Below, piece by piece: positions 1 to 18,213 of a DNA stretch of 64,000 bases. Numbering within the stretch: the first letter of the stretch is position 1; each line of letters starts with the position of its first letter. The translations under genes and the position numbers were made by a program. Below the pieces are notes generated by a model. It made no database searches. It was not told the origin of the DNA and saw nothing but the letters and a program-made list of their open reading frames with translations. Origin of the DNA: Bacteroidales bacterium (GTDB taxonomy: Bacteria > Bacteroidota > Bacteroidia > Bacteroidales > JAADJA01); NCBI GenBank assembly GCA_020052415.1, contig JAGVPB010000094.1, positions 102,881-166,880 on the forward strand. Direction: 5' to 3'.

Positions 1-1566
1 GCTGGGCTATTTCATAAGCCTCCTTTCTTGCAGCTTCAATCTGTTCATTGTTTGCTTTGGTAAAAAAAACAAGTTCTTTGGCAACAGCATCAACTACATC
101 ATTGTAATTATCCTCATTTCGTTCAATTGTTGTTACAGCATGATGTTCAACATTGAAATTATATTTCACCCAAAGGCCAAAGCCTGCAAGAGAAGTTGTT
201 AATGTTGGTATTTTAAATGCAATACTTTCAAGCGGAGTATAGCCCCAGGGTTCGTAATAGGAAGGAAAAACTGTAACATCAAAACCTGTAAGCAACTGGT
301 AATAATCGAAATTAAAAATTCCATCCATACCGTTCAAATAAACCGGAACAAAAACGACTTTTACATTATCACCCGGGCCATTGGAAATGTTATTCTCCCT
401 GATTTTTTTAAGAACCGGATCATGGTTCTTATCATACAGCACATGAGTAAGGTATTCGTTTGACACTGGCAGGTTGAAGTCGGCTTTACCAATATGATCA
501 ATCAGATCTTTTCTTGGCCCTGCATTGCTTCCGGGAACAGTAATAAGAGCTATGACTTGTCGTTTCAGCTTCTTATCCGAATTCAGCTTTCCAAGGGCAT
601 CAATATAAATATCAATGCCTTTATTCCAGAACTCATACCTTCCACTGGTGAGAATGATAAGCGCATTTTCTTCAATTTTTTGATTCAACAGCGATTCCAC
701 TACCAGAATGATTCTGGCTCTTGCTGTTTTTCTTTGCGTTTCAAATTCCCCGGTGTTTGGTAGGAAAACATCTGAGAACCCGTTTGGCGTCACTACATCA
801 GGTTCTTTATTTAGCAAATACTTACATTCGTTGGCAGTAATATCACTCACGGTTGTAAAGCAATCAGCTTCCTTAGCAGAATTATACTCCAGTGAAAATT
901 TTGATGTAATGCCCAATTGCCGTGCAAGTTCAGAGGGATTGTATTTTTCAAGATCACTGTAAAGCCGAAGATTATTGCCTGAAATTGATCTTCCCAAAGT
1001 AGTGGCATGAGTTGTAAATACAGTTGCAACCTGAGGCACTTTATCTTTCAGGTAAAGCACGCCCGCGCCTGTCATCCATTCATGAAAATGGCCGATAATT
1101 TTATCATTGGCTGTTACATAAAAGTTGTAAAAGCTTTCAATTACAATTCCTGCTGCATATCCGAACAGGGCGGGTTCAACATAGTCCCAGCCTCCCGACA
1201 ATGAATCAAGCTTATAAGTTTCCCAGAACTCAGCAAATATCTGATCCTTTATAATAAAAAAAGGCGTAAAGTCAACTAAAACGGCTATAGGTTTGCCGGG
1301 TATATTCCACCTTCCGGTTCTAATTCTTAATCCTTCCTTTTCAGCACTTTCATGCCATGCTTTGAATAATGACTTGTCATCAACAAAATCAGGATTTTCA
1401 ACTGTCTCTTTCCAAACATCGGGACCGATAAAAATATATTTATCATCATACCCGTCAACCATTGACATATATTTTGATGACAGAACCGTATAGATCCCTC
1501 CGACCTTATTACAAACTTCCCAGCTTACTTCGAACAGATATCCCGGCGTTGATAACTCACTAGTCA
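1..1566 (-). CDS. glycogen synthase, GT3 (eukaryote-like) family; C-terminal end lies outside the window
   Basis: Hand translation of the minus strand from ATG (1566-1564) gives MTSELSTPGYLFEVSWEVCNKVGGIYTVLSSK. Later motifs are HFHEWMTGAG, TTHATTLGRS and FPSYYEPWGYTPLES, typical of GT3 glycogen synthases. The frame stays open to position 1, and the ORF is absent from the track because it has no stop in the window. Confidence 0.85.
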
Positions 1567-1619
1567 TTATTATTCAATTTGAGAAAAGATATACTACAAT
1601 AACTTTTAATAAATGTTTG

Positions 1620-1627
1620 CAAATTTA
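1620..1627 (-). promoter_or_regulatory. Bacteroidota -7 promoter element (TAnnTTTG) for the glycogen synthase gene
   Basis: The minus strand reads TAAATTTG about 54 nt upstream of the ATG at 1566, matching the published Bacteroides TAnnTTTG -7 consensus. Confidence 0.3.
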
Positions 1628-1780
1628 AGGGTTAACTTTTACCAAAGTCATCATTATTATTAACAATTTCCCTGACAACGCAACTTAAAACCTTAGTCCT
1701 TCATCTATTATACATAAATCTTTTTGGCCTATAGTCTGACTATACATAGACACTTAAAAATTACATTTAAATCATTTATC

Positions 1781-2092
1781 ATGAAAACTAACAATTTATG
1801 TATTCAAATTCTGTATGTGTTTATATTTCTTTCAAGTCAAACCTCCGCCCAAAATTCAGTATTGTCAGAATGTAATTGGTACAAACTCGCGGTTCAACAG
1901 ACGGGTATTCACCAAATAACATATAGTGACCTCATGAGCTACGGGATCAATCCTTCACAACTTAACCCCAAACACATCAGGCTTTACGGAAATGGTAACG
2001 GAATGTTGCCTGAAGATAATAATTCATTCAGGTATGATGACTTACAGGAGAATGCCATTTTTGTCTATTCACTGAAAACTATGGCTTCATAA
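1781..2092 (+). pseudogene. truncated remnant of a PorU-family / C25 peptidase gene (signal peptide plus ~70 aa homologous segment only)
   Basis: MKTNNLCIQILYVFIFLSSQTSAQ is followed by NWYKLAVQQTGIHQITYSDLMSYGINPSQLNPKHIRLYGNGNGMLPEDNNSFRYDDLQENAIFV. This aligns with residues ~170-240 of both full-length PorU-like ORFs (e.g. IRVYGNGGGMLPENVNEFRYDDLQENSIYV). The ORF stops after 103 aa and its 3' end is overlapped by the convergent gene ending at 2065. Confidence 0.65.
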
Positions 2093-3579
2093 ACATAAAT
2101 TTCAGCATCTTTCCAGCCATCCCAACCAAGGCCAGCCTTGTCTCGGGAACAATGACCTAAAAATTCATTATGATTCCAGCCGGTTTCTGTTGCAACTTGT
2201 GGTAAAAAAGTGCCGCTGCGATTACCCTTTTTAATATAAATGCCGTTTTTGCCAAGTTCGATTTCATTAACAGATTCGATCTTTTTTAAGGGTGTCAGTA
2301 CGGATATTTCTATGATGATTTTCTGTAATTCACTTTTACTCACAGGTACGAAGCGTTTATCCTGAGTTGAAGATGCAATTGCCATTTGCTGCACAACTTC
2401 AAATAATGGTTCTTCCTGGTCGAACCTTCCGATACATCCCCGCAGTTCATCGTTCATTTTCAGGGTAACAAAAGCACCGCATTTTGTTTTTATTGCATCT
2501 GAAAAAGTTTCAGATTTAAGTTGAGCTAAATTATTTTCCGAAATATAGCTTTCAATGGTGATTCGCGCAATATTCAACAGGTCTTTTTTGTCAGTGTCAG
2601 TCAAATAAAAATCCGATTGTTCTTTTAGTTTCTTACTTACAACAATTGAATTATACCCTACCACCCTGTTTGAGTCACCATATTTTGTATCCCCTGAATT
2701 TTGATAAGTGATCAAATCGTACTTTAAATCATCAATATTAGTAGTCAGATATAACAAAGTAAGGATGGAAGTCCAGCCGCAAGCCCTTGTTGCAAGCCCC
2801 GGTACATTATTATTAATGCCGTCGCTAAGTTCTGATAAAAACATATCCGGATCGTTTGTAAGAATACTCTCAGCAGTTTTTTTGTCAATTATAACAGCAT
2901 TTTTATAACCAGGATAATGCGAAAAATCTGAACTGACAACAAATAAATTTGATTCATTAAAGTAGGGTTGTAACGCCACAGCTATTTTATGACAATCTTC
3001 CTGAGATTGGGTTCCGATTACTATTGGCACAATTCGAAATCCATCCTTCAATTTATATTGCAAAAAGGGTAATTGTACTTCAACGGAATGTTCCTGTTTG
3101 AAAGCCTGGGCATTAGAATTGAATATCCTGTTCTCTGAACTTAGTTTTTCTGCGAGTTCAGTATTTACTTTAACTCTTCCCAGGGGAGTAATAAAATCAC
3201 CGGAAGTAAATATTGAAGCTCCTTCAAAATACGAGGTGTGACTTGATGCAATTATAAAGACATTATTATAAAATTTTTCTGTATCAATTTGATTAAACCC
3301 TGAAGCTGCAACCCCTCCGGAATAAATATAACCTGCATGCGGTGAAATAACAGCCAGAACATTTTGGAATTTTCCAGGAACAGCATTCTTATAAAGATTC
3401 GCAAGTATTAGATTAAGTTCTTCTTTATCTGAAGGGTAAAACTGACCGGCAAAATCAGGCTGCTTGTCAAGCGGGTTATGGTTTTGAGCCTTATCATCAG
3501 TTTTATCCTGAGATGAACAACAGTTACAAAATAAAACAAATACAATAAGTAAATTGATGAAATAGTTTTTCTTATTCAT
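2065..3579 (-). CDS. AmmeMemoRadiSam system fusion protein: Memo-like (protein B) N-terminal half plus AMMECR1 (protein A) C-terminal half, with N-terminal signal peptide
   Basis: The Memo-like region carries GQFYPSD and VISPHAGYIYSGGVAASGF. The AMMECR1 region carries CGAFVTLKMNDELRGCIGRF and GTFLPQV. The N-terminus MNKKNYFINLLIVFVLFCNCCSSQ looks like a secretion or lipoprotein signal. Confidence 0.85.
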   Translation of the reverse strand: MNKKNYFINLLIVFVLFCNCCSSQDKTDDKAQNHNPLDKQPDFAGQFYPSDKEELNLILANLYKNAVPGKFQNVLAVISPHAGYIYSGGVAASGFNQIDTEKFYNNVFIIASSHTSYFEGASIFTSGDFITPLGRVKVNTELAEKLSSENRIFNSNAQAFKQEHSVEVQLPFLQYKLKDGFRIVPIVIGTQSQEDCHKIAVALQPYFNESNLFVVSSDFSHYPGYKNAVIIDKKTAESILTNDPDMFLSELSDGINNNVPGLATRACGWTSILTLLYLTTNIDDLKYDLITYQNSGDTKYGDSNRVVGYNSIVVSKKLKEQSDFYLTDTDKKDLLNIARITIESYISENNLAQLKSETFSDAIKTKCGAFVTLKMNDELRGCIGRFDQEEPLFEVVQQMAIASSTQDKRFVPVSKSELQKIIIEISVLTPLKKIESVNEIELGKNGIYIKKGNRSGTFLPQVATETGWNHNEFLGHCSRDKAGLGWDGWKDAEIYVYEAIVFSE

Positions 3580-3617
3580 TTTTATATAAATTTGAAAACC
3601 ATAAACAAATGTAAGGA

Positions 3618-5762
3618 ATGTTTATCAAACCTGCAAATAGAGTAAAATTTTCAATCTTCATCCTGGGATTTACATCAATAATTACCCAAATTATTGTGTT
3701 GAGGGAATTCCTGACTGTATTTAACGGAAATGAATTAATTACCGGGATGATTCTTGCAAATTGGATGCTGTTAACAGGATTGGGAGCCTTATTGGGAAGT
3801 TCATTAAAAAAATATTATATAAATTTCAATGCAATAAGTTACACACATATATTAATCGGGATATTACCTATCATTATTGCATTTTTAATTTATTATTTAA
3901 GAAATATACTTTTCCCGGCTGGTAAAATGATTAATCTTCTTGAAGTATTTTTTACTTCTTTAATTTTACTCGCTCCTTTTTGCATTCTTGCCGGAATATT
4001 ATATACTGTCTTTGCCCATCTCCTTTCATCTATTTTAAAATCGAATGTCATCAATAAAGTATATGCCATTGAAGCATTTGGTAGCATTGCAGGTGGAATT
4101 CTCTTTAATTTTTTACTGATATTTATTTTCAAAACTTTTTTTAGCCTGACACTTCTATTAATAATTAACTTTTCCACAGCAATAATACAGTTTTATATAA
4201 CCGATAAAAAAGCAATAGCTTACGTCACATCCCTCATAACCATTTTATTAACTCTCGTTATCATTACATCTGATTTAGAACGAAAAGCTGTTCAACTCCT
4301 CTATCCCAATCAGGAGCTGATCTATTTTAAAGACACGGCATACGGTAAGATAGTCGTTACAAAAACTGCAAATCAATACAACTTTTATGAAAACGGAAAT
4401 TTTCTATATACCAATAATAATAATATTCAGAATGAGGAGAACGTGCACTATGCTATGTCGCAGCATGCGCATCCTGAAAATGTTTTACTGATTTCAGGTG
4501 GCGCCTCAGGAATGCTGCACGAAATTTTGAAATATAATATAAGTTCCGTAGATTATATTGAGCAGAACAAAAACCTGATTGAAGTTGCTGAACTTTATAC
4601 AAGCAATATTATCCATCAGGATAATATTAACATTATTCATAATGATGCACGACTTTTTTTAAAAAATAAATCTGATAAAAAATATGATGTTGTATTGGTT
4701 AGCCTTCCTGATCCAACTAGTGTTCAAATCAACAGGTATTTCACGCTCGAATTTTTTGAGGAATTGAAAAAACACCTGAATGAATTTGCAATCGTTTCAA
4801 TCAGCCTTTCTTCAGTTTCAAATTATATGGGAGAGCAATCAATAAATATTAACTCATCAATATTCTCAACATTGAAACTTTTTTTCCAGAGTGTTACAAT
4901 AATTCCAGGTGGGAAAAATTATTTTATTGCATCCGACGGTCATCTTTCTACTGCAATAGCAAGCTTGATTGAAGAAAAAAAAATAAAAAACGAATATGTA
5001 AACTACTATTATCTTGAAGACACCCTAATCTCAAAAGAAAGTAAATTAATTGAGGATATTATTTCAGAGGATATTGTTATCAACAATGATTTTAAACCTG
5101 TGGTTTATTATTTTCAGTTGCATTATTGGTTAAGCTATTTTAAAGTTAATTATTTGATATTCTTCGCAATTCTTATAGTTTTTGCAGTTTTGATCATTGT
5201 CAGACTTAATTATCTTAATTTCGGACTTTTCGTTACAGGGTTTACGGCATCATCCCTGGAGCTTATTTTAATCATAGCTTTTCAGGTAATTTATGGATAC
5301 ACATATCAAATGATGGGGATAATCATTACTTTTTTCATGGCTGGTTTAATGTTTGGTTCATTGATTTTGGCCGAAAGAATAAAGGTTAGGATAAAGACCT
5401 ACAGTTTAATTCAATATACCATAGGCATTTTTTCAATATTAGTCACTTTAACTTTACTATTACTCAGGTCAAGTTCATTAAATGTTATTTTAGTTCATTT
5501 CATTTTTATTGTGCTAATTTCGGCTACAGGGATGCTGACCGGTCTGCAATATGCAATTTCATCAAAACTTAGAATTGTTTCTATATCCCAGATAGCAGCA
5601 ACCACTTATGCAACCGACTTATTAGGGTCGGCATTGGGGGCAGTACTCGTTACCTCCTTTATTATTCCTTTTTTTGGAATTATTAAAGTTACTCTTATTA
5701 TTGCCATACTAAATTTCATCACCGGTCTGTTTGTTTTAATAAAGTCAAAAAATAGTAATTGA
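3618..5762 (+). CDS. polytopic membrane protein with central spermidine-synthase-like (class I SAM-fold) domain
   Basis: By eye there are ~7 hydrophobic segments, then a soluble domain with LLISGGASGMLHEILKY and DVVLVSLPDPTS (spermidine synthase-like GGGxG / D..DP motifs), then ~6 more hydrophobic segments. Confidence 0.7.
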   Translation: MFIKPANRVKFSIFILGFTSIITQIIVLREFLTVFNGNELITGMILANWMLLTGLGALLGSSLKKYYINFNAISYTHILIGILPIIIAFLIYYLRNILFPAGKMINLLEVFFTSLILLAPFCILAGILYTVFAHLLSSILKSNVINKVYAIEAFGSIAGGILFNFLLIFIFKTFFSLTLLLIINFSTAIIQFYITDKKAIAYVTSLITILLTLVIITSDLERKAVQLLYPNQELIYFKDTAYGKIVVTKTANQYNFYENGNFLYTNNNNIQNEENVHYAMSQHAHPENVLLISGGASGMLHEILKYNISSVDYIEQNKNLIEVAELYTSNIIHQDNINIIHNDARLFLKNKSDKKYDVVLVSLPDPTSVQINRYFTLEFFEELKKHLNEFAIVSISLSSVSNYMGEQSININSSIFSTLKLFFQSVTIIPGGKNYFIASDGHLSTAIASLIEEKKIKNEYVNYYYLEDTLISKESKLIEDIISEDIVINNDFKPVVYYFQLHYWLSYFKVNYLIFFAILIVFAVLIIVRLNYLNFGLFVTGFTASSLELILIIAFQVIYGYTYQMMGIIITFFMAGLMFGSLILAERIKVRIKTYSLIQYTIGIFSILVTLTLLLLRSSSLNVILVHFIFIVLISATGMLTGLQYAISSKLRIVSISQIAATTYATDLLGSALGAVLVTSFIIPFFGIIKVTLIIAILNFITGLFVLIKSKNSN

Positions 5763-5789
5763 TCCTGAAATCAGGAATTGAAAACCAAC

Positions 5790-6956
5790 ATGGCTCAAAA
5801 ATTAATTAATAAAAGACGGTTTTTAAAAGAAGGCATCCTGGGAGCAGGGGCGTTAAGTTGCGGAATATTCAATATAAACCCGCTTAATGTGAAAGCCGGT
5901 GAATTATTAGGTTTGCAGGACAAGGAATCTGAAGGATTCAAAGAAAGCTGGAAAATAGAATCCAAATTTTATATCAACACTCCTAAGGGATTAAAATGTC
6001 AGCTTTGCCCGAATGAATGTAAAATGCTGCTTAATGAAACCGGCGATTGTAGAACCAAAGTAAATATTGAAAACAGGCTTATTTGCATTGCTTACGGTAA
6101 TCCATGCGCAATTCATATTGATCCAATAGAAAAAAAACCACTTTATCACTTTTATCCAGGATCCAGTGCCTTTTCGATTGCTACTGCAGGATGTAATCTG
6201 GCATGTCTGAATTGTCAAAACTGGGAGATTTCCCAATCCAGTCCTTACTCAACAAGAAATTATGATTTATCACCTGAAAAAGTCGTGGATGAGTGTGCAA
6301 AGAACAATTGTAAATCCATTGCCTATACATATTCTGATCCGGTGGCATTTTATGAATATACACTTGACACTGCAATCATTGCCCGTGAAAAAAATATTAA
6401 AAATGTAATTGTCAGCGCTGGCTATATTAATGAAAAGCCATTAAGAGAATGGTGCAAATATATTGATGGTGCACATATTGATTTGAAATCCTTTTCAAAT
6501 GAAATATATGAAATGCTGAATGCCGGGAAGCTAGAACCCGTTCTGAATACATTAAAAATAATGAAAGAAGAGGGTGTATGGCTCGAAATTATCAATCTGA
6601 TAATTCCCACTTGGACGGATGATCTGGATATGATTAAAAAAATGTGTGATTGGCTCGCTGAAAATGGTTTTGAATCAACACCCCTGCATTTTAGCAGATT
6701 TCAACCTCTTTATAAATTGACCAACTTACCTGCAACCCCGGTTTCTGTTTTAGACAAAGCAAGGGAAATTGCACTTTCCCGGGGAGTAAACTTTGTTTAT
6801 ATTGGTAATGTGCCTGGTACCTTGGCAGAAAATACTTTTTGTCCTGATTGTAAAAAAGTCGTCATTTCAAGGAAAGGCTTCAGAATACTTGAAAACAATT
6901 TAGATGCAGGGAAATGCAAATTCTGCAAAGCCGCAATACAAGGCATTTGGGATTGA
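5790..6956 (+). CDS. AmmeMemoRadiSam system radical SAM enzyme with twin-arginine (Tat)-like leader
   Basis: The CxxxCxxC motif is CNLACLNC. Extra Cys clusters are CQLCPNEC near the N-terminus and CPDC...CKFC near the C-terminus. The N-terminus is MAQKLINKRRFLKEGILGAGALSCGIF. The track begins at the alternative TTG at 5778, but the ATG at 5790 is preferred. Confidence 0.85.
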   Translation: MAQKLINKRRFLKEGILGAGALSCGIFNINPLNVKAGELLGLQDKESEGFKESWKIESKFYINTPKGLKCQLCPNECKMLLNETGDCRTKVNIENRLICIAYGNPCAIHIDPIEKKPLYHFYPGSSAFSIATAGCNLACLNCQNWEISQSSPYSTRNYDLSPEKVVDECAKNNCKSIAYTYSDPVAFYEYTLDTAIIAREKNIKNVIVSAGYINEKPLREWCKYIDGAHIDLKSFSNEIYEMLNAGKLEPVLNTLKIMKEEGVWLEIINLIIPTWTDDLDMIKKMCDWLAENGFESTPLHFSRFQPLYKLTNLPATPVSVLDKAREIALSRGVNFVYIGNVPGTLAENTFCPDCKKVVISRKGFRILENNLDAGKCKFCKAAIQGIWD

Positions 6957-7439
6957 TATAACTTCACCAGAATCGATCCTTTTTTTATTAAATAAACACA
7001 TCAAATAAATTAATGCTTATAGAGTTTAAATTTCCGTTAGAAGTAGTTTTTTAATTCAGATAAATATAACAATTTCACAGGATTTACGTAATAATGCTAT
7101 TAAATTGAGTTAAAAAATCAATAATTTAAGTTTAATAACTTTGATATTCATGTAATTGCTCAGACAGAATAAGAATTAATGTTCACTCCATACCATTTCT
7201 TTTCAGAATTTTCTATTCAGCGAGCAGGAATAGGAACAGAGTTATTGTAACAAGAATGCATTAATCATTTTGATTTTTTTTGAAATTTATAATTTTAGTT
7301 TTGTTGGAAAAAATTAAGTTTGTACACTCGCTTTTATTGTTTCTTATAACATTGATCAAATTATGGAATCTTAAATTGGAATTGCAACAAACTAAATTTC
7401 ATACTGTTATGAAATTTTATAAAAAATTTTTACAGAACA

Positions 7440-7470
7440 GGGTTACCTTTTATTGATTTACAGAATTAAC
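7440..7470 (+). promoter_or_regulatory. conserved motif GGGTTACC-N-CAGAATTAAC upstream of the sigma factor gene (candidate ECF-type promoter)
   Basis: GGGTTACCTTTTATTGATTTACAGAATTAAC ends 9 nt before the GTG start at 7480. It is 25/31 identical (ungapped, hand count) to 12864-12894. Confidence 0.5.
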
Positions 7471-7479
7471 TATTGAAAA

Positions 7480-8052
7480 GTGCAGGAATTTAAGGCAGAA
7501 GAAATATTAGAAGGCCTTCAGAATAGAGACACTGACGTTCTGGATTATATCTACAGAAACTTTTTCAATCAGATAAAAGTTTTTATTGTCCAAAATGATG
7601 GTACTGATGAAGATGCAAAGGATATATACCAGGATGCGATTTTAGTGATTTATCAAAAGACCCGAAAGGAAAACCTGATACTTAGTTGTTCTTTTAATAC
7701 TTATTTATATTCAGTTTGCAGATTACTGTGGCTAAAACAACTCGAATACAGGAAATTAAATAAAACTATAATTGAAGAATCTGCAAAGTTTATTGAATTG
7801 GATGACGATGTAGCTAACGTTTACAGGACAAATGAGCGATATATGTTATATCAGGATCATTTTAAAAGGCTTAGTTATAGTTGTCAGAAAATTTTAGAAC
7901 TTTTTCTTGCAAGAATTCAATTAAAAGAAATTGCAAGGATTCTAAGACTTAAAAGTGATGATTACGTGAAAAAGAGAAAACATCAATGCAAAGAAAAATT
8001 AATTGCAAGCATTAAAAATGACCCAAGGTTTAAAGAAATAATGAAACAATAA
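7480..8052 (+). CDS. RNA polymerase sigma factor, sigma-70 family, ECF-like (regions 2 and 4)
   Basis: The region-2-like segment is DAKDIYQDAILVIYQK...FNTYLYSVCRLLWLKQ. The region-4 HTH-like segment is LKEIARILRLKSDDYVKKRKHQCKEKL. The start is GTG, with an in-frame TGA two codons upstream. Confidence 0.75.
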   Translation: MQEFKAEEILEGLQNRDTDVLDYIYRNFFNQIKVFIVQNDGTDEDAKDIYQDAILVIYQKTRKENLILSCSFNTYLYSVCRLLWLKQLEYRKLNKTIIEESAKFIELDDDVANVYRTNERYMLYQDHFKRLSYSCQKILELFLARIQLKEIARILRLKSDDYVKKRKHQCKEKLIASIKNDPRFKEIMKQ

Positions 8053-8072
8053 AATTCTAAATTATCTTAAAA

Positions 8073-8813
8073 ATGAATAAATCCTATAATCAAATCGAAG
8101 ATTTTCTTGATGGCAATTTAATTGGAAAGGAATTAAGTATATTTATCAGCCAGAAAGAATTGGATAAGGAACTTGCAAAGGAAATTGAGCTTAGGTTCGA
8201 AGTAAATGAATTAATAAAGGATAATGGATTTTTCGAATTGAGAGAAAAACTCGAACTTCAGAGAAATGAATCCTATGTAAATAGTTCAATTATTAAGTTC
8301 AGAAAAGATTTATTTAAAACGTGGCATTTTGCCGCTGCTTCTTTTGCTCTTATCCTTGTTGTAGGCGGATTATGGTATATTTTATCGAACAAGCCCTATT
8401 CCACTGAAAAATTAGTTAGTAAATATTATAAACCTGCTCACCCTTTATTACAGGTTAGGTCAGCTGAAATTAAAAGTGATGATGCCCTTGCCACGGCATT
8501 CAAATATTATAAGGACAATGATTTCAACAGCGCTCTTAAATATTTTAATTCATTAGAAAATCAAATGACTGCAAAGTTTTATTCAGGAGTATGTTTTATT
8601 GAATTAGAACAATATGATGATGCTATTGAATCGTTCACAGCAGTAATTAATGACAATGACAATTTATTTGTAGAACAGGCAAACTGGTATTTAGGACTTA
8701 TCTATTTAATGGACAATCAAAAAAATAAGGCCATTGAACAGTTTGAAAAGATTTCTAAGGACGAAAATTACTATACTTCCCAGGCAAAAGAAATATTAAA
8801 ATATCTCAACTAA
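8073..8813 (+). CDS. anti-sigma-like single-pass membrane protein with extracytoplasmic TPR domain
   Basis: It lies 20 nt downstream of the sigma gene. The N-terminus IEDFLDGNL resembles anti-sigma N-termini. There is one TM segment (WHFAAASFALILVVGGLWYIL) and C-terminal TPR-like repeats (AFKYYKDNDFNSALKYF, AKFYSGVCFIELEQYDDAIESF, ANWYLGLIYLMDNQKNKAIEQF). Confidence 0.6.
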   Translation: MNKSYNQIEDFLDGNLIGKELSIFISQKELDKELAKEIELRFEVNELIKDNGFFELREKLELQRNESYVNSSIIKFRKDLFKTWHFAAASFALILVVGGLWYILSNKPYSTEKLVSKYYKPAHPLLQVRSAEIKSDDALATAFKYYKDNDFNSALKYFNSLENQMTAKFYSGVCFIELEQYDDAIESFTAVINDNDNLFVEQANWYLGLIYLMDNQKNKAIEQFEKISKDENYYTSQAKEILKYLN

Positions 8814-11800
8814 TATTTTTTCTTTTCCTGTATATTCTAAAGCCGATATAAACGGTTACTAAAATTAGAAGAAAAGCTACAGGATAAATTAAATACCTCC
8901 TGTATGAATAGGTGATAATGGTTGAATTATCACCTATTTGTACATAAGCAGCCCAAAAATATGGATGAGAATGTATTTGATCAGATTCAGTTATATAGGT
9001 CAGCTTTGAATTTCTAAGTGCATCATCAATATTCAATCCTTTATTCAGATTATGATAAAACTTTTCCATTATATTAGCACTGGAAATATCTTCTATTTCC
9101 CATAATGTCATGACAATAGAAGGAACACCTGCATACATAAATCCCCTGGCAAGACTCATGATTCCTTCTCCCTTACTGAACTTACCTATGCCTGTTTTAC
9201 ATGCACTTAAAACCACCAATTGGGCATTTAGGTTGAGATTGTAAATTTCATAATTATTCAGAAATCCATCCTCCGCCGAATCATTATTTAAAGTAAAAAC
9301 TAATTTTGATTTAAGTGGATCTTCATCATTTATTAAGGTATGCATTGCAAAATGAAGTATTTTAAACTTATTGGCATCGGATTTAACAAATTTCTCGGTA
9401 GCCTCCTCACCAGTCACAACTTTGCCATATACTTCTGAACTAATATTATTTACTTCATCAATTGAATAATCCAAAGGTGTAAGCATTGAGAATTTATCCC
9501 ATGAGACCTTATGTTCAGAGTTCAAATCTGCTAAGTTCAAATAGGTTGGGGCCATAGCCAACAACTTACCATTGTTTTTCTTCTTAACATTATGTTTAAA
9601 CATTATGGTCGCTGAATAAATGTAAGATACAGAATATTGATTAATTACATAGTTTAAATTTCTGAAATCCAATTTATCCGGGACATAATCATCCATTAAT
9701 AAGGCTTCGAAAGTTAAGTAACCCAATATACCATCCGGAACGATCAGCAAACTTTTATGATCCTTGGTAACTCCAATATTTTCCAATAATATTTTATAAA
9801 AATAATAACTGCTTTGAATAAAATCTTTATAAGTCTCCTTCGTAAAATCATGACCCGGAAAGACATTTATCAAAGACATAAGCCCGATAACTTTTTCAGA
9901 GATATTACCTTCAATTATTTGCTTTTTATAAATCACTGTGTCATGCGAAATTAAAAATGTTAACAAGGCTGAATCAACAATTTTATACTCTATAAATATT
10001 TCGTCCTTCTCAAGTCTTTGCTGAATATCCTTAACTTCGATAACATCCACACTATATTTAAGCTGGAAATAGTCGGGATAATTATTTTCAATATGATCAA
10101 TCAGGCTGTCGTATTTTAATGATTCTTCAAAGATTATTTTTTTTAATGAAAAAATTTTATTGCTGTCAGGCATGCTTTTTTGACTTTCGTCATATAGGTT
10201 GATTTTATATAATGAAATTTCTTTATTAAGGTTTTGTTCCTTTGCTTTTATATTTTCAGGAATTTTACCAATTTCGATAGCCTCAGATTGCCTTAACGAA
10301 GATAAAAGAATTGCAGCTTTACCTTTTTCCGAAAACTCAAAAGCTTTATATAAATAATCAATGTCGTTGGTCTTCTCATAAAGATCTGTTGCTACAAGTA
10401 CAATTGAATTATAAATATCATATACATAATCATTTATTAATAGCTTAGTATTTTCGTCCTTATATGAGGATAAAATTTTCTCAAACAAGATTATTGTTAA
10501 TTTATTTACCTCGAAGCTTGCTTGTAGATCTGCAATCTTATGACTGTATTTTCTATAGTAAAGATAAAGTGCATCAGATTTTTTATACAAGGCAATAAAA
10601 TTGTTAAACTCTAAGTCAATGTCATCAATTGATGGATTCGAATATAAATTGTAATCATTGAATTTTTTTATTGTAGAAACAATAGCTTTTTGATAAACTT
10701 CCAACGCCTGTTCAATTTTATCCATATCGTAATACAAATCGGCAAGGTTAATTAAAACCAAAGAAACTTCAGTATTTTTAAAACCAAAAATCTCCTTATA
10801 AATTCTTAATGCATCATTAAATAAATTAACAGCTTCATTATACTTCTTCTGATTTGTACAAAATTGTCCATAAGCACTATAACTTCCTGCTGTATGGTAA
10901 CTATCTTTACCGTATAATTTTTCTGAAATTGAAATGGCCTTTTTATAATTCTCTTCAGCCTTAGAAAAGTCATTCAAACTAAAATAACACCTTGCTGAAT
11001 TTCTTAAGGCTTTAATGCTATTTTCCGGACTAAAGTTGTCAATTAGACAATCATTATAAAATTCAATCGCTTTTTGCAGGTTACCCAGTTTTTCATAAAT
11101 AACCCCAAAATTGAGGTATAATTCATTTATAACTGAATTTGTTGTAATAGAATTCTTTCGATACAATTCCAAAGCCTGTTCCTGGTAAGTAAGAGCTTTA
11201 TTATAATCACCTAACAAAATAAATATCGAACCTATATTAAAATATATCGGGGCAAGGCCAAAGTATTCCAAACCGAAATTTGAAATATAAATTTCTTCTG
11301 CTTTACTCAGATAATTCAAAGATTCGTTTGACTCTCCCATTATATACAAAAACCTGCCATAATTAAGGTATCCGGAAGCGAGCTGCGGATCGTTCTTATT
11401 AAGAAACTTTTCTTTCAATAATACTGATTGATTGAAATATAATTTCGCACTGTCATACAATCCCATATTTGAATTAGCAATGCCTATGTTTAAATACAAT
11501 GAAGCAATTGTAATATCAGATGGATAAACTCTTGACCTCTCAATCGAAAGTGCTTTATTATAAAAACCAAGTGCAGCTTTATTATCCTTTAAGCTAATTT
11601 CAAGGTTTCCAAGTGATTTATAAACCAACGGTGTTAGGCTGTCATATTTTTCATTTTCACAATAATCACGAGCAAGTTTAAGGCATTTTAGTGAACTATC
11701 AATTTCGCCATATTTAAATAATAAATTCCCTTTAATAAAGAAAAACTCTGCATGTACTTTTTTTGAATCTATCCCTTTAGAATTTAGAAAAATTTCGGAA

Positions 11801-12132
11801 GACTTTAAATAATGGAATGCTGAATCAAAAATTCCTTTTGTTTGAAATGATTGTGAAATAAGGATTTGACATTTTAAATATTTCTCCCTTTGATCAATTT
11901 GTAAATATAACAGCGAAGCTTTTTTGTAAAAAAACAATGCCGAATCGAACTGTGCCTGCAAATATAGAGAATCAGCTTTATAAAAGTTTTGAAATGCTTT
12001 CGAGGTCAATTCGGAAGTATCAATTGATTGGCTGTTTGAATTGACAGATGATAAACCAGACACTTTATTATTGCAACAAAATACCGTTAATAAAGCTATT
12101 AATACAAATCCGTTTAAAAAAAATTTGTTCAT
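8806..12132 (-). CDS. exported TPR-repeat / CHAT-domain (caspase-fold protease) protein with C-terminal membrane anchor
   Basis: The N-terminal signal is MNKFFLNGFVLIALLTVFCCNN. About 600 aa of TPR-like repeats follow. The CHAT region contains ILHFAMHTLINDEDPLKSKLVF and LVVLSACKTGIG (His and Cys dyad context). The C-terminal TM is YPVAFLLILVTVYIGF, followed by RIYRKRKNIS. Confidence 0.8.
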   Translation of the reverse strand: MNKFFLNGFVLIALLTVFCCNNKVSGLSSVNSNSQSIDTSELTSKAFQNFYKADSLYLQAQFDSALFFYKKASLLYLQIDQREKYLKCQILISQSFQTKGIFDSAFHYLKSSEIFLNSKGIDSKKVHAEFFFIKGNLLFKYGEIDSSLKCLKLARDYCENEKYDSLTPLVYKSLGNLEISLKDNKAALGFYNKALSIERSRVYPSDITIASLYLNIGIANSNMGLYDSAKLYFNQSVLLKEKFLNKNDPQLASGYLNYGRFLYIMGESNESLNYLSKAEEIYISNFGLEYFGLAPIYFNIGSIFILLGDYNKALTYQEQALELYRKNSITTNSVINELYLNFGVIYEKLGNLQKAIEFYNDCLIDNFSPENSIKALRNSARCYFSLNDFSKAEENYKKAISISEKLYGKDSYHTAGSYSAYGQFCTNQKKYNEAVNLFNDALRIYKEIFGFKNTEVSLVLINLADLYYDMDKIEQALEVYQKAIVSTIKKFNDYNLYSNPSIDDIDLEFNNFIALYKKSDALYLYYRKYSHKIADLQASFEVNKLTIILFEKILSSYKDENTKLLINDYVYDIYNSIVLVATDLYEKTNDIDYLYKAFEFSEKGKAAILLSSLRQSEAIEIGKIPENIKAKEQNLNKEISLYKINLYDESQKSMPDSNKIFSLKKIIFEESLKYDSLIDHIENNYPDYFQLKYSVDVIEVKDIQQRLEKDEIFIEYKIVDSALLTFLISHDTVIYKKQIIEGNISEKVIGLMSLINVFPGHDFTKETYKDFIQSSYYFYKILLENIGVTKDHKSLLIVPDGILGYLTFEALLMDDYVPDKLDFRNLNYVINQYSVSYIYSATIMFKHNVKKKNNGKLLAMAPTYLNLADLNSEHKVSWDKFSMLTPLDYSIDEVNNISSEVYGKVVTGEEATEKFVKSDANKFKILHFAMHTLINDEDPLKSKLVFTLNNDSAEDGFLNNYEIYNLNLNAQLVVLSACKTGIGKFSKGEGIMSLARGFMYAGVPSIVMTLWEIEDISSANIMEKFYHNLNKGLNIDDALRNSKLTYITESDQIHSHPYFWAAYVQIGDNSTIITYSYRRYLIYPVAFLLILVTVYIGFRIYRKRKNIS

Positions 12133-12290
12133 GGAAGGAAATAACTCCTTAAATTAATAGAACGTTGCACCGATAAAGAATAAATCATTATTCCTGCATA
12201 TTTTAATTCAATATTCCATCGAACACAATCAAAACAATCTTACTTAATCGAAAAACTTCTCTGTCGGGTCAATATTAGCAAGCGAAATAA

Positions 12291-12325
12291 AAAAGGGAAA
12301 TAATCTGAGCGAAAATTTCCCTTTT
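12291..12325 (-). terminator. rho-independent terminator downstream of the small secreted-peptide gene
   Basis: A perfect 11-bp stem pairs AAAAGGGAAAT (12291-12301) with ATTTCCCTTTT (12315-12325). On the minus strand it is followed by a T-rich run. Confidence 0.6.
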
Positions 12326-12498
12326 AATAAATCAAATCTCTTCAAGTACCAGAAAATTTTACCCTTATCCCTATATAAAACAAGAGACAATAATTCAACC
12401 ATTAGCAAATCTATTTATAATTTGCAACGTACGAAACTTATCTCTACAAATTGAAATAAGCTGTAAAATCTTTACAAAATCTCTCTGATAATAAAACT

Positions 12499-12681
12499 TT
12501 ATTCCGGAACGTAAACTCCATTAACATCCGCAGCACTATTTCCCTGAATATCATTACCTGGAGAAGTAGATGTACCTGAATTACCGTTGGCATCAGTACC
12601 AGTTTCATCAGAGAATACATTTAAAGTAAAAAAAACAAAGAACATAGCCATAATAATGGCAACAAAACCTCTCTTTTTCAT
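12499..12681 (-). CDS. small secreted protein (60 aa), Gly/Asn/Ser/Thr-rich mature part
   Basis: MKKRGFVAIIMAMFFVFFTLNVFS is a signal-like segment followed by a low-complexity DETGTDANGNSGTSTSPGNDIQGNSAADVNG tail. The gene has its own TAnnTTTG element (12725-12732, minus) and terminator (12291-12325). Confidence 0.5.
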   Translation of the reverse strand: MKKRGFVAIIMAMFFVFFTLNVFSDETGTDANGNSGTSTSPGNDIQGNSAADVNGVYVPE

Positions 12682-12724
12682 AAACCCTCAATTTTAAAAT
12701 TAATACAATTTTCGAATGACGATT

Positions 12725-12732
12725 CAAAAATA
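12725..12732 (-). promoter_or_regulatory. Bacteroidota -7 promoter element (TATTTTTG) for the small secreted-peptide gene
   Basis: The minus strand reads TATTTTTG 44 nt upstream of the ATG at 12681. Confidence 0.3.
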
Positions 12733-12863
12733 GTACTATTTTTCAATTTGGGACTTTTTTTTTCAATTTTTCACATATTTTATTAAATACATTATATTAA
12801 ATGCTGGTTATCAGTAAATTAATAATATTTTTTATTTTTTTAGTAAAAATAATTACAAAACCA

Positions 12864-12894
12864 GGGTAACCTTTTTTTCGATTTCAGAATTAAC
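12864..12894 (+). promoter_or_regulatory. second copy of the conserved GGGTWACC-N-CAGAATTAAC motif, upstream of the histidine kinase-like gene
   Basis: GGGTAACCTTTTTTTCGATTTCAGAATTAAC lies 44 nt upstream of the ATG at 12938. The upstream flank TACAAAACCA also resembles TACAGAACA at the first site. Confidence 0.5.
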
Positions 12895-12937
12895 AAATGG
12901 AGTGTAGTGCGTATTTCTTGACCTTTAATTTGCAGAA

Positions 12938-13729
12938 ATGAATAGAAAGTTGACTTATAAAGAGTTAGAGGAAAAGGTATCCGAAATGGAAAGTAAACTT
13001 ACCTTGAAGGATAAAGAAGTACATAAGTTAAAGTCATCCTTTCTATCGAATATTTCACACGAAATTCGAACCCCGATGAATGTGATAGTTGGATTCTCCT
13101 ATCTGCTAAATGATCCACATTATGACCAAAATCAAAAGGAATTCTTTGTTGGAGAGATAAATAAAAACAGTAAAGAATTACTCAGGTTAATTGATAACAT
13201 TATTTTAACTGCCAAGATTGAGACGGATGATATTAAGCTCGAAATGAATATTTGTGATATTCAAACCTTGATGGAGGAACTTTATACTCAAATTCGAAAA
13301 TTTGTTAATTCTAATTTAAACAATAAAGTTGAATTAAAATTCATTCAAAATACTTTAAAATCGAATTATCAGATTTTCACAGACAGGGAGAAGTTTATGC
13401 GCGCGATGTTTAATATGATAGAAAACGCAATTAAATTTTCAAAAAATAATTCTGTCGAATTTGGTTACAATATAATTAATGACAAATTTGTTGATTTCTT
13501 CATTAAAGATAATGGAATTGGTACCAATGGTGAAATCAATTTCTCCGGCCGGAAATTAAGTCTTATTGAACCGGATGATAATTCAGATTTTTATGAAACC
13601 AGGATTGGACTTACTATATCTGATAAATTGATCAGGTTGCTTGGCGGAAAGTTAAAAATAAAATCCTCAATTGGAAAAGGATCCTCTTTTAATTTTACAA
13701 TACCTCTGTTAGTAGAAAAGCCTGTATAA
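12938..13729 (+). CDS. soluble histidine kinase-like protein (coiled coil + HisKA + HATPase_c), no sensor or TM domain
   Basis: The H-box is SFLSNISHEIRTPMN, the N-box-like segment is MIENAIKFS, the G1-like segment is IKDNGIG and the G2-like segment is GLTISDKLIRLLGG. No hydrophobic segment is present and no response regulator gene lies nearby. Confidence 0.7.
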   Translation: MNRKLTYKELEEKVSEMESKLTLKDKEVHKLKSSFLSNISHEIRTPMNVIVGFSYLLNDPHYDQNQKEFFVGEINKNSKELLRLIDNIILTAKIETDDIKLEMNICDIQTLMEELYTQIRKFVNSNLNNKVELKFIQNTLKSNYQIFTDREKFMRAMFNMIENAIKFSKNNSVEFGYNIINDKFVDFFIKDNGIGTNGEINFSGRKLSLIEPDDNSDFYETRIGLTISDKLIRLLGGKLKIKSSIGKGSSFNFTIPLLVEKPV

Positions 13730-13750
13730 ACGATACAGGCTAAGAATTAA

Positions 13751-13778
13751 GCCATCCAATATTGGGTGGCTTTTTTTT
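13751..13778 (+). terminator. rho-independent terminator after the histidine kinase-like gene
   Basis: The hairpin GCCATCCAAT/ATTGGGTGGC is followed directly by T8. Confidence 0.7.
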
Positions 13779-13896
13779 ATTTACCGTTAATCTATTACAA
13801 TTCGAATGGTTGAAAGAAATAATTTCAGGCTATAACAATCTAAAATTCCTGTAAATTTTAATTTGCTTTGCAATAAAAATAAATTAAATATTGCTT

Positions 13897-17685: not shown

Positions 17686-18213
17686 TTAAGATTTTTCACC
17701 ATTGATTTTAAGTACAAACTCATCTATTATCCTGATATAATCTTCTTTCGTAAGAGCACCGGGCTGCATCGCAGGCTTACCGGTTGCTGGACTGAAAAGA
17801 ACTGAAGGAATACTATTAACCCGAAAAACAGATGCAAGTTCTTTCTCTTTATCAGTATTTACTTTATATATTATGACTCTTCCTTTATAATGGTCTGCAA
17901 GTTCATCCATAATAGGTGCTACCATTTTACAGGGTTTACACCAGTCCGCATAAAAATCAATTACACACGGTAGTTCTCCTTTATAAATCCATTCTTCAGG
18001 ATTAGCTTCATAGTCCCAAACTTTAATTTTAAAGTCTGCAACCGTAAGATATGAGGGTTTGATGTCACCATTCGCCAATTGCGGATTATTAAATGAACTG
18101 ACATTGTCAACAGCGGCTGCATTTGTTTTTACCCCGGAATTTTCTGAATTCTGATTACAGGAAGCAGTTATGATTACAGTAATCAGAACCAGTAGTTTAA
18201 TTACTCTATGCAT
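17686..18213 (-). CDS. exported thioredoxin-family (lipo)protein, CKPC active site
   Basis: The signal or lipobox-like N-terminus is MHRVIKLLVLITVIITASC. The active site is DFYADWCKPCKMVAP. Confidence 0.8.
   Translation of the reverse strand: MHRVIKLLVLITVIITASCNQNSENSGVKTNAAAVDNVSSFNNPQLANGDIKPSYLTVADFKIKVWDYEANPEEWIYKGELPCVIDFYADWCKPCKMVAPIMDELADHYKGRVIIYKVNTDKEKELASVFRVNSIPSVLFSPATGKPAMQPGALTKEDYIRIIDEFVLKINGEKS

Follow-up and report, generated by a model that had tools for sequence, protein, structure and literature searches.

The AmmeMemoRadiSam system comprises a radical SAM (rSAM) enzyme, a Memo-like protein and an AMMECR1-like protein, represented by the NCBIfam models TIGR04337, TIGR04336 and TIGR04335 respectively. 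Its biochemical function is still unknown. The family models begin after the N-terminal leaders described below, and 82 of 139 non-fragment family representatives are leaderless, and at least 18 are signal-less rSAM-AMMECR1-Memo fusions. As far as could be found in the literature searched, radical SAM enzymes are treated as cytoplasmic, as they need Fe-S assembly, SAM and a low-potential reductant, and no radical SAM enzyme exported with such requirements has been described. By contrast, the Bacteroidales locus studied here encodes a version of this system in which the proteins carry conserved signals predicted to place them outside the cytoplasm, which would put radical SAM chemistry in the periplasm.

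Composition of the locus

The window analysed is a 64,000-nucleotide stretch of a Bacteroidales contig. A sequence-only reading had proposed that positions 2065-6956 encode an AmmeMemoRadiSam system apparently targeted outside the cytoplasm, consisting of a Memo-AMMECR1 fusion with a signal peptide and an rSAM enzyme with a twin-arginine-type leader. This observation holds and is not attributable to chance, but the interval contains three genes rather than two (Table 1), as the membrane protein gene lying between the other two had been overlooked. Family membership is secure: the fusion matches TIGR04336 at 238.7 bits against a cutoff of 26 (residues 39-314) and TIGR04335 at 167 bits against 99 (residues 334-502), while the rSAM enzyme matches TIGR04337 at 359.4 bits against 220. 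The nearest solved structures are human MEMO1 (3BCZ, 7KQ8) for the Memo domain, and MM0484 (1ZQ7) and PH0010 (1VAJ) for the AMMECR1 domain. The rSAM enzyme also hits TIGR02493, TIGR04041 and PFL-AE (3C8F), placing it in the PFL-activase-like group.

Table 1. Features of the AmmeMemoRadiSam locus, in window coordinates; rSAM residues are numbered from the ATG at 5790
Coordinates	Strand	Feature	Residues	Detail
2065..3579	-	Gene for the Memo-AMMECR1 fusion, predicted to be secreted	504 aa	
3511..3579	-	Sec-type signal peptide of the fusion	1-23	MNKKNYFINLLIVFVLFCNCCSS; predicted cleavage before Q24
2641..3459	-	Memo domain	41-313	PF01875, 203 bits
2074..2574	-	AMMECR1 domain	336-502	PF01871, 173 bits
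3618..5762	+	Gene for an MFS-like membrane protein, predicted 14 TM, with a central spermidine-synthase-like domain	714 aa	PF01564; NF037959, 47.7 bits against a cutoff of 40
3630..4271	+	Predicted transmembrane helices 1-7	5-218	
4314..5099	+	Predicted SpeE-fold domain, predicted to face the periplasm	233-494	
5151..5756	+	Predicted transmembrane helices 8-14	512-713	
5790..6956	+	Gene for the AmmeMemoRadiSam radical SAM enzyme	388 aa	Listed ORF starts at TTG 5778 (392 aa)
5790..5894	+	Tat-like leader	1-35	n-region with N-K-R-R-F-L-K; Gly/Ala/Cys-rich h-region GILGAGALSCGIF; c-region ending V-K-A
5811..5828	+	K-R-R-F-L-K motif	8-13	
5940..6953	+	Radical SAM catalytic core	51-388	Includes the N-terminal CxxCPxxC motif and C-terminal Cys pairs
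6192..6215	+	CX3CX2C radical SAM cluster motif	C135, C139, C142	PF04055 covers residues 135-282 of the TTG-start ORF (131-278 from the ATG)

The level of conservation of this arrangement was studied across 81 related loci. Only three gene families are conserved: the rSAM enzyme in 81, the SpeE-like membrane protein in 61 and Memo-AMMECR1, adjacent to the rSAM gene, in 59. The three-gene module recurs in about 60 of the 81 loci. In most of the loci that carry it, the membrane protein gene is directly upstream of that for the rSAM enzyme. No electron-transfer gene is conserved next to the Bacteroidales module.

Targeting signals of the Memo-AMMECR1 fusion and the rSAM enzyme

The signal peptide of the fusion is followed by QDK, and has a basic n-region (MNKK), a strongly hydrophobic core and a C-S-S site preceding the Gln, corresponding to the Bacteroidetes 'Q-rule' cleavage pattern (PMC5837995, PMC10653852). 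Of 56 partner genes from related loci, 54 have a comparable hydrophobic core, 46 have a small-x-small site followed by Gln and 34 have C-x-x-Q.

The rSAM gene most likely starts at the ATG at 5790 (MAQKLINKRRFLKEG...), 27 nt after the upstream stop codon. As the TIGR04337 model begins only at about residue 71 of the TTG-start ORF, or about residue 67 counting from the ATG, the N-terminal part is an extension. This Tat-like leader of around 50 residues is conserved: 114 of 120 close homologues carry [S/T/N]-K-R-x-F-[L/I]-[K/R] followed by an uncharged stretch with a median length, under the definition used, of 17 residues, while the other six begin inside or just after the leader and look like truncated gene calls. 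K8, R9 and F11 are invariant in 66 aligned homologues, as are the three Cys of the CX3CX2C motif and those at positions 70, 73, 77, 87, 351, 354, 376 and 379. In the AF2 model, an isolated helix at residues 8-24 is followed by a disordered linker, with pLDDT of 41-65 over residues 1-50, and the confident catalytic core starts at about residue 51.

The 'twin arginine' of the sequence-only reading nevertheless requires correction. The family motif is S/T-K-R-x-F-L/I-K, with Lys in 114 of 114 close homologues, and the second Arg of the leader in the window occupies the variable x position. K-R is probably a natural but weaker variant of the Tat motif. Furthermore, this leader receives no hit from either TIGR01409 or PF10518, and one of the two close homologues tested reaches only about 13 bits, against cutoffs of 16.7 and 22.7 respectively. 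By contrast, more distant relatives carry true R-R leaders in the same register, and 6 of the 10 tested reach the TIGR01409 cutoff, at 16.8-19.5 bits. Of the 139 non-fragment family representatives, 25 have Tat-like leaders, 23 of them R-R, and these are concentrated among the nearest relatives of the query (18, 5 and 2 per tertile of 50).

The two leaders differ in the way that Sec and Tat signals should. In contrast to the strongly hydrophobic core of the Memo-AMMECR1 signal, the h-region of the rSAM leader is 23% Gly and weakly hydrophobic, with a mean Kyte-Doolittle hydropathy of 1.24, and follows an n-region with a net charge of +4. Only 12 of 113 rSAM leaders have a Q-rule cleavage site, so the processing of this leader is unclear.

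The MFS-like membrane protein

The AF2 model of the 714-aa protein (pLDDT 87.8, pTM 0.87) contains 7+7 transmembrane helices. TM1-5 align to TM9-13 at 26% identity (E = 2e-4), although there is no Pfam MFS hit and none of the 50 listed PDB fold matches covers the transmembrane part. Across 66 homologues, the number of Lys and Arg residues per loop is 2.2, 3.5, 2.1, 1.9, 1.0, 2.8, 2.4 and 2.6 in even loops, against 0.05, 0.5, 0.4, 0, 0.7 and 0 in odd loops. The SpeE-like domain lies in an odd, K/R-poor loop between TM7 and TM8, and is hence predicted to face the periplasm. A Foldseek comparison of this domain gives TM-scores normalised to the target of 0.65-0.75 to solved SpeE structures. The adenosyl-binding residues are retained, E315 being Glu in 62 of 66 homologues and D343 being Asp in 66 of 66. 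However, the Asp of GGGDG associated with dcSAM selectivity is never present, position 296 being I, V, A or L, and the first, catalytic Asp of D-S-x-D-P, at position 362, is Asn in 57 of 66. It is therefore not a canonical aminopropyltransferase.

Associations in more distant relatives

The leaderless rSAM-AMMECR1-Memo fusions show that the three domains work together, and the rSAM enzyme should therefore be on the same side of the membrane as its Sec-signal-bearing partner. A Desulfobacterota relative, from the Desulfatibacillaceae, has an rSAM enzyme with an R-R leader adjacent to a Memo-AMMECR1 with a Sec signal, although the SpeE-like partner is absent from this locus. One further locus with an R-R leader, L043, carries the SpeE-like membrane protein, a Fer4_5 NapH-like membrane protein, the rSAM enzyme and a TM-anchored Memo-AMMECR1, with tatC and tatA adjacent; this is the only locus in which the Tat genes are found next to the module. 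Some relatives are fused to FMN_bind, NapH-like Fer4_5 or DsbD_2 modules, which move electrons across the membrane (PMC8238504). In those fusions an extra TM after the last cytoplasmic CX3CP loop is predicted to place the rSAM domain on the FMN_bind side. This partly answers the objection, raised in the sequence-only reading, that no reducing system is known to be available in the periplasm, albeit in other lineages. Conversely, some relatives put the rSAM domain behind a Sec-like signal, a lipobox or a polytopic membrane domain, which is hard to reconcile with the loading of Fe-S clusters in the cytoplasm.

Localisation of the system and alternative explanations

Every comparative test that could be run supports the extracytoplasmic targeting of the whole system, with a Tat-type route for the Fe-S enzyme, and export is well supported in silico, though it remains a prediction. 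The favoured explanation, held with moderate confidence, is an envelope-located variant of the AmmeMemoRadiSam system made of three proteins. The Memo-AMMECR1 fusion would be exported by Sec and probably cleaved by signal peptidase I before Gln24. The rSAM enzyme would fold and receive its Fe-S clusters in the cytoplasm before being moved across the inner membrane by the Tat pathway; because its leader lacks the usual Bacteroidetes cleavage pattern, it may stay attached as a tether. The membrane protein would hold its spermidine-synthase-fold domain in the periplasm, and it is inferred that it brings SAM to the exported enzyme, or removes its adenosyl by-products, so that the trio can modify an envelope or membrane substrate. 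No periplasmic pool of SAM and no periplasmic Fe-S assembly system is known, however, the electron source in this lineage is likewise only inferred, and the absence of the SpeE-like protein from the Desulfobacterota locus means it cannot be a universal SAM supplier. In its fullest form, in which a dedicated MFS-like transporter exports SAM and hands it to the enzyme, or removes 5'-deoxyadenosine and methionine, while the fused modules of other lineages carry electrons across the membrane, this hypothesis is not excluded but remains doubtful.

It is possible, but considered unlikely, that the rSAM enzyme instead stays in the cytoplasm, held at the inner face of the membrane by a remnant Tat-like leader, and modifies Memo-AMMECR1, or a cofactor on it, before that protein leaves through Sec. 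The failure of the leader to match the Tat HMMs, the invariant K-R in place of R-R, the lack of a Q-rule site and the availability of SAM, reductant and Fe-S assembly in the cytoplasm all favour this view, as does the precedent for cytoplasmic rSAM maturation of a Tat-exported effector (PMC13128918); remnant Tat signals are also likely to exist on non-exported enzymes such as NarG. Nevertheless, a simple tether would not need the full S/T-[KR]-R-x-F-L-K motif, conserved across phyla with canonical R-R leaders passing TIGR01409, and the h-region is too weakly hydrophobic to act as a stable anchor. The predicted outward placement of the rSAM domain in the FMN_bind and NapH-like fusions, that of the adenosyl-binding domain of the third partner, and the tatC and tatA genes of L043 also argue against it.

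Similarly tentative is the suggestion that the enzyme is exported by Tat but carries its SAM bound in the folded protein and fires once in the periplasm, for instance installing a stable radical or a modification on AMMECR1, Memo or a substrate in the manner of glycyl-radical activases. Tat moves folded proteins with their cofactors, the enzyme is PFL-activase-like and, as the Desulfobacterota locus shows, the SpeE-like partner is not universally required; it would then have another job, such as flipping or alkylating the substrate. Yet no glycyl-radical-type motif or partner has been identified, a stoichiometric enzyme would be costly to the cell, and the tight linkage of the MFS-SpeE-like gene, with its adenosyl-binding residues retained, suggests a role connected to the cofactor. 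That the leaders are artefacts of mis-called start codons or chance hydrophobic N-termini is very unlikely: although the listed rSAM ORF begins at the furthest-upstream start rather than a verified one, and six homologues lack the leader in their gene calls, its conservation at the protein level at down to about 60% identity, and the signals on 54 of 56 partners, effectively refute this.

Comparison with described systems

Relative to the cytoplasmic form of the AmmeMemoRadiSam system, the same three domain families are co-located and the CX3CX2C and CxxCPxxC motifs are retained, but here both proteins carry export leaders and the MFS-SpeE-like membrane protein is added. A conserved, multi-phylum subfamily seems to challenge the assumption that radical SAM enzymes are cytoplasmic, with the periplasm-facing adenosyl-binding transporter being predicted in Bacteroidota and Ignavibacteriota. 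This would also narrow the search for the function of the trio, two of which have human disease-linked homologues; at least in this branch the substrate should be in the envelope or membrane.

The rSAM leader appears to resemble those of Tat-exported Fe-S proteins with unusual or uncleaved leaders, such as Rieske proteins and probably the K-R leaders of the chloroplast Rieske protein and Salmonella TtrB, in its Fe-S passenger, S/T-x-R-x-F-L-K-type n-region, weakly hydrophobic Gly-rich h-region, natural K-R variant and possible retention as an anchor. The difference is that this passenger would also need SAM and a low-potential reductant after its predicted export. Relatives of the rSAM enzyme are fused to exactly the modules of the extracytosolic flavinylated electron-transfer systems surveyed by Meheust et al. 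2021 (PMC8238504), the main text of which does not mention radical SAM, Memo or AMMECR1, or are encoded beside them (in locus L043 and a second locus, L085), but the module in the window has no such gene nearby. The membrane protein shares with the fused MFS/spermidine synthases (NF037959) and SpeE (PF01564) the predicted full SpeE fold and the ribose-binding Glu and adenine-binding Asp, but differs in the loss of the two Asp residues described above, and in the insertion of the domain between TM7 and TM8. Finally, cytoplasmic rSAM maturases of exported proteins, such as anSME and the HXS system (PMC13128918), are likewise radical SAM enzymes genetically linked to a protein that carries an export signal; in those systems the rSAM enzyme has no leader of its own, whereas here it carries a conserved Tat-type leader itself.

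Gene content of the locus

The Memo-AMMECR1 fusion scores 238.7 bits on TIGR04336 and 167 bits on TIGR04335, both far above the respective cutoffs, while the rSAM protein (MAQKLINKRRFLKEG...) scores 359.4 bits on TIGR04337 against a cutoff of 220. The TIGR04336 model starts at residue 39 of the fusion, and the TIGR04337 model starts at about residue 71 of the 392-aa TTG-start ORF, which is about residue 67 when counted from the ATG. Both proteins therefore have N-terminal extensions relative to their families. Between them lies a gene for a polytopic membrane protein, matching PF01564 and NF037959 'fused MFS/spermidine synthase', which was not mentioned in the sequence-only reading. The divergently transcribed Memo-AMMECR1 and membrane protein genes are separated by only 38 bp, and hence their promoters must overlap the coding regions or each other.

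The part of the window holding this module is comparatively low in G+C, which may represent an island or simply local composition. Homologues of the proteins encoded just downstream of the rSAM gene recur in 6-9 of the 81 loci compared below. The short ORF overlapping the 3' end of the Memo-AMMECR1 gene has a Q-rule-type signal peptide (...FLSSQTSA, followed by QNS) but no Pfam hit, and may be a truncated remnant of a secreted protein gene. Elsewhere in the window, the Pfam match of the thioredoxin-fold protein starts at residue 73, leaving an N-terminal extension of about 70 residues, and this protein could be a membrane-anchored or periplasmic thioredoxin.

Coordinates of features in the window and in four loci of related rSAM enzymes (L043, L081, L082 and L087)
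Sequence	Coordinates	Strand	Feature
Window	1-1573	-	ORF of at least 524 aa running off the start of the window (MTSELSTPGYLFEVSWEVCNKVGGIYTVLSS...)
Window	1-14000		Region holding the module, a sigma/TPR/CHAT cluster and a histidine kinase; 29-37% G+C (29-34% after the first 2 kb)
Window	1724-2092	+	122-aa ORF, overlapping the 3' end of the Memo-AMMECR1 gene by 28 nt
Window	2065-3579	-	504-aa Memo+AMMECR1 fusion
Window	3579-3618		Interval between the Memo-AMMECR1 and membrane protein genes
Window	3618-5762	+	714-aa polytopic membrane protein with a central spermidine-synthase-like domain
Window	5790 (ATG start)		rSAM gene, following 27 nt after the stop codon of the membrane protein gene
Window	5832-5870		Equivalent of the Cys-containing h-region in the rSAM leaders of the close homologues
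Window	7480-12132		Weak Sigma70_r2 protein, TPR protein and 1108-aa TPR-CHAT protein
Window	14000-64000		Remainder of the window, mostly 36-44% G+C
Window	17686-18213	-	175-aa thioredoxin-fold protein
L043	4821-11709		Six-gene arrangement including tatC and tatA
L081	9115-10089		Gene just downstream of an R-R-leader rSAM
L082	7193-7873		Gene just downstream of an R-R-leader rSAM
L087	1986-4493		835-aa fusion protein P0124, a representative with a Sec-like signal

Conservation of the rSAM leader

A protein search returned 120 close homologues of the rSAM enzyme at 60-93% identity, mostly about 388 aa long and from Bacteroidales metagenome-assembled genomes. Of these, 114 carry the motif [S/T/N]-K-R-x-F-[L/I]-[K/R], with the first basic residue being Lys in 114 of 114, whereas the remaining six start inside or just after the leader and look like truncated gene calls. 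K8, R9 and F11 are invariant in an alignment of 66 sequences. A mis-called start codon can be rejected as an explanation, because the leader is conserved at the protein level. The motif is followed by an uncharged stretch with a median of 17 residues, which is 23% Gly and 9% Cys and has a mean Kyte-Doolittle hydropathy of only 1.24; in 65 of 113 cases the next charged residue is basic. AlphaFold2 models residues 8-24 as an isolated helix followed by a disordered linker, with pLDDT of 41-65 over residues 1-50, and the confident catalytic core begins near residue 51.

This is the anatomy of a Tat-type signal, but with K-R rather than R-R. The pair of arginines taken in the sequence-only reading as a twin arginine is, in the alignment register, K-R plus an Arg at the variable position, and the 93%-identical relative of the window's protein reads NKRQFLK. 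Curated Tat HMMs give no hit for the window leader and about 13 bits for one of the two close homologues tested, below both cutoffs. The frequency of Cys in the h-region, where 101 of 114 leaders have at least one, often as G-x-C-G, is unusual for a signal peptide. However, an interpretation of these sequences as Tat-lipoproteins is not convincing, as only 62 of 114 have a lipobox-like pattern, it occurs at two different positions, and in many sequences the Cys lies in the middle of the hydrophobic stretch.

Relatives with canonical leaders

A search of 1.84 billion cluster representatives found 4,129 relatives at E ≤ 1e-10, of which the best 150 were classified. After setting aside 11 fragments, 82 were leaderless, 25 had a Tat-like leader (23 of them R-R), 15 had another short N-terminal extension and 17 had a long N-terminal fusion; several of the group with other short extensions are also R-R or K-R leaders. 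Targeted forms cluster near the query, with the three tertiles of 50 holding 18, 5 and 2 Tat-like leaders and 12, 2 and 3 long fusions. The K-R of Bacteroidales aligns in register with R-R, for example ISKREFLK against ISRREFLK, HSRRDFIK and INRREFLG, and six of ten R-R leaders reach the TIGR01409 cutoff, at 16.8-19.5 bits. Two of these representatives are named in NCBI as AmmeMemoRadiSam rSAM enzymes, from Desulfatibacillaceae and Planctomycetota. The feature therefore spans phyla.

In the neighbourhoods of two leaderless representatives, P0135 and P0154, the partners were not adjacent. No Memo or AMMECR1 gene was found near the R-R-leader representatives P0141 and P0131, but the downstream genes encode secreted proteins. 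The genes of this type in loci L081 and L082 have no Pfam family on record; the product of one looks like a beta-propeller by eye, while the other has a signal peptide ending ARA before QT. In the representatives P0123 and P0125, rSAM domains of this family are also found fused behind signal-bearing beta-propeller (Reg_prop, PorZ-like) and CBM_11-like domains, which suggests carbohydrate or cell-surface contexts.

Signal peptides of the Memo-AMMECR1 partner

In 81 loci, comprising 80 from a scan of reference genomes plus the window, Memo-AMMECR1 is adjacent to the rSAM in 59. Of 56 full-length partner genes, 54 have a strongly hydrophobic N-terminal core, 46 have a small-x-small site followed by Gln and 34 have C-x-x-Q; the window reads C-S-S before Q-D-K. 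Gln at +1 is the Bacteroidetes 'Q-rule' for signal peptidase I substrates (PMC5837995, PMC10653852). As the residue preceding the Cys is often N, T, E, D or Q, cleavage by SPI before Gln fits better than cleavage by SPII, although these patterns alone do not resolve the two. By contrast, only 12 of 113 rSAM leaders have a Q-rule site, and therefore the rSAM leader may not be cleaved in the usual way.

In a Desulfatibacillaceae contig, the R-R-leader rSAM P0122 is followed by a Memo-AMMECR1 that begins MGRGAKTLVLLVAICVASLSAGSA, a classical Sec signal. Conversely, at least 18 leaderless representatives are rSAM-AMMECR1-Memo fusions with no signal at all. These fusions also show that the three domains act together physically, which makes a split localisation, with a cytoplasmic rSAM and a periplasmic partner, unlikely.

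A conserved membrane protein with a predicted periplasmic domain

Clustering all ORFs from the 81 loci reveals only three conserved families: the rSAM in 81 loci, the SpeE-like membrane protein in 61 and Memo-AMMECR1 in 59. The next-largest family is found in 21 loci. The AlphaFold2 model of the membrane protein (pLDDT 87.8, pTM 0.87) has seven TM helices, a soluble domain at residues 233-494 and then seven more TM helices. Its topology was assessed from hydropathy and positive-inside counts. Over 66 homologues, the mean K+R per loop is 2.2, 3.5, 2.1, 1.9, 1.0, 2.8, 2.4 and 2.6 for the even loops (N-terminus, 2, 4, 6, 8, 10, 12 and C-terminus), but 0.05, 0.5, 0.4, 0, 0.7 and 0 for the odd loops (1, 3, 5, 9, 11 and 13). 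The soluble domain is loop 7, an odd loop, and is predicted by the positive-inside rule to face the periplasm. TM1-5 align to TM9-13 at 26% identity (E = 2e-4); the core may therefore be a parallel 6+6 repeat, as in MFS transporters, with TM7, the domain and TM8 inserted in the central loop, although a Pfam search of the two TM halves found no family.

The soluble domain has the full SpeE fold in this model, with TMt of 0.65-0.75 to solved SpeE structures. The ribose-binding Glu (E315) is Glu in 62 of 66 and the adenine-binding Asp (D343) is Asp in 66 of 66, whereas the Asp of GGGDG is never present and the first Asp of D-S-x-D-P is Asn in 57 of 66. It is therefore an adenosyl-binding module, not a canonical aminopropyltransferase.

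Possible sources of electrons

Several relatives of this rSAM carry N-terminal fusions identifiable with Pfam. The representatives P0126 and P0132 have FMN_bind and Fer4_5 (NapH-like) domains, P0128 and P0130 have DsbD_2, P0142 has DsbD_2, FMN_bind and Fer4_5, and P0143 and P0149 have a single TM and FMN_bind; P0143 is also preceded by a DsbD_2+Fer4_5 membrane protein. In P0126, P0132 and P0142, hydropathy and K/R counts show one extra TM after the last cytoplasmic CX3CP loop, which places the rSAM on the same side as the FMN_bind domain. Meheust et al. describe these modules as extracytosolic electron-transfer systems (PMC8238504), the main text of that paper mentioning neither rSAM nor Memo nor AMMECR1.

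Locus L043, on a contig labelled as a Methanosarcinales MAG, has an R-R leader (VDRREFIKK) and encodes, in order, the SpeE-like membrane protein, a Fer4_5 (NapH-like) membrane protein, the rSAM, a TM-anchored Memo-AMMECR1, and then tatC (185.7 bits) and tatA (78.9 bits). No other locus has Tat or NapH-like genes beside the module, and no conserved electron-transfer or Tat gene was found beside the Bacteroidales module.

Interpretation

The presence of export-type leaders on both the fusion and the rSAM, as proposed in the sequence-only reading, is confirmed, with the two corrections that the motif is K-R and that a third conserved gene is present; the interpretation that the system is targeted outside the cytoplasm is supported in silico. 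The most economical reading is that this branch of the AmmeMemoRadiSam family works outside the cytoplasm, with the fusion leaving by Sec, the Fe-S enzyme leaving by Tat, possibly remaining tethered by its leader, and the membrane partner presenting an adenosyl-binding domain on the same side. It is inferred, but cannot be shown, that this partner supplies SAM or removes its by-products. This reading predicts radical SAM chemistry in the periplasm.

Two alternatives remain: that the rSAM carries one bound SAM through Tat and fires once, or that it stays inside the cell as a membrane-tethered maturase. The K-R motif, the sub-threshold HMM scores and the lack of a cleavage site on the rSAM leader all weaken the case for export, which also assumes a Tat system not sought in this genome. 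There is no electron conduit near the Bacteroidales module, and the SpeE-like partner is absent from the Desulfobacterota locus. Furthermore, a few relatives place the rSAM domain behind Sec-like signals, a lipobox or polytopic domains (P0124, P0165 and the NapH-like fusions), raising the question of how their Fe-S clusters would be loaded. The case of P0124 is puzzling, as this single protein joins a non-RR, Sec-like signal (MKNNKFIKILIFTFLTISF...FSQ), Memo, AMMECR1 and the Fe-S rSAM domain, with a rhomboid gene downstream.

Comparison with known systems

The system is a member of the AmmeMemoRadiSam family, as all of the defining features were tested and are present. No TIGR04337 member has a solved structure, with PFL-activating enzyme being the only weak hit. 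The leader of the rSAM is Tat-like but does not formally satisfy the twin-arginine or HMM criteria, whereas its R-R relatives do. No paper describing the biology of this system, an exported radical SAM enzyme or this variant was found, although the analysis of Memo-AMMECR1-rSAM gene contexts by Burroughs et al. 2019 (PMC6664185) may contain relevant prior observations. The nearest published cases are cytoplasmic rSAM maturases of exported proteins, such as the HXS system (PMC13128918).
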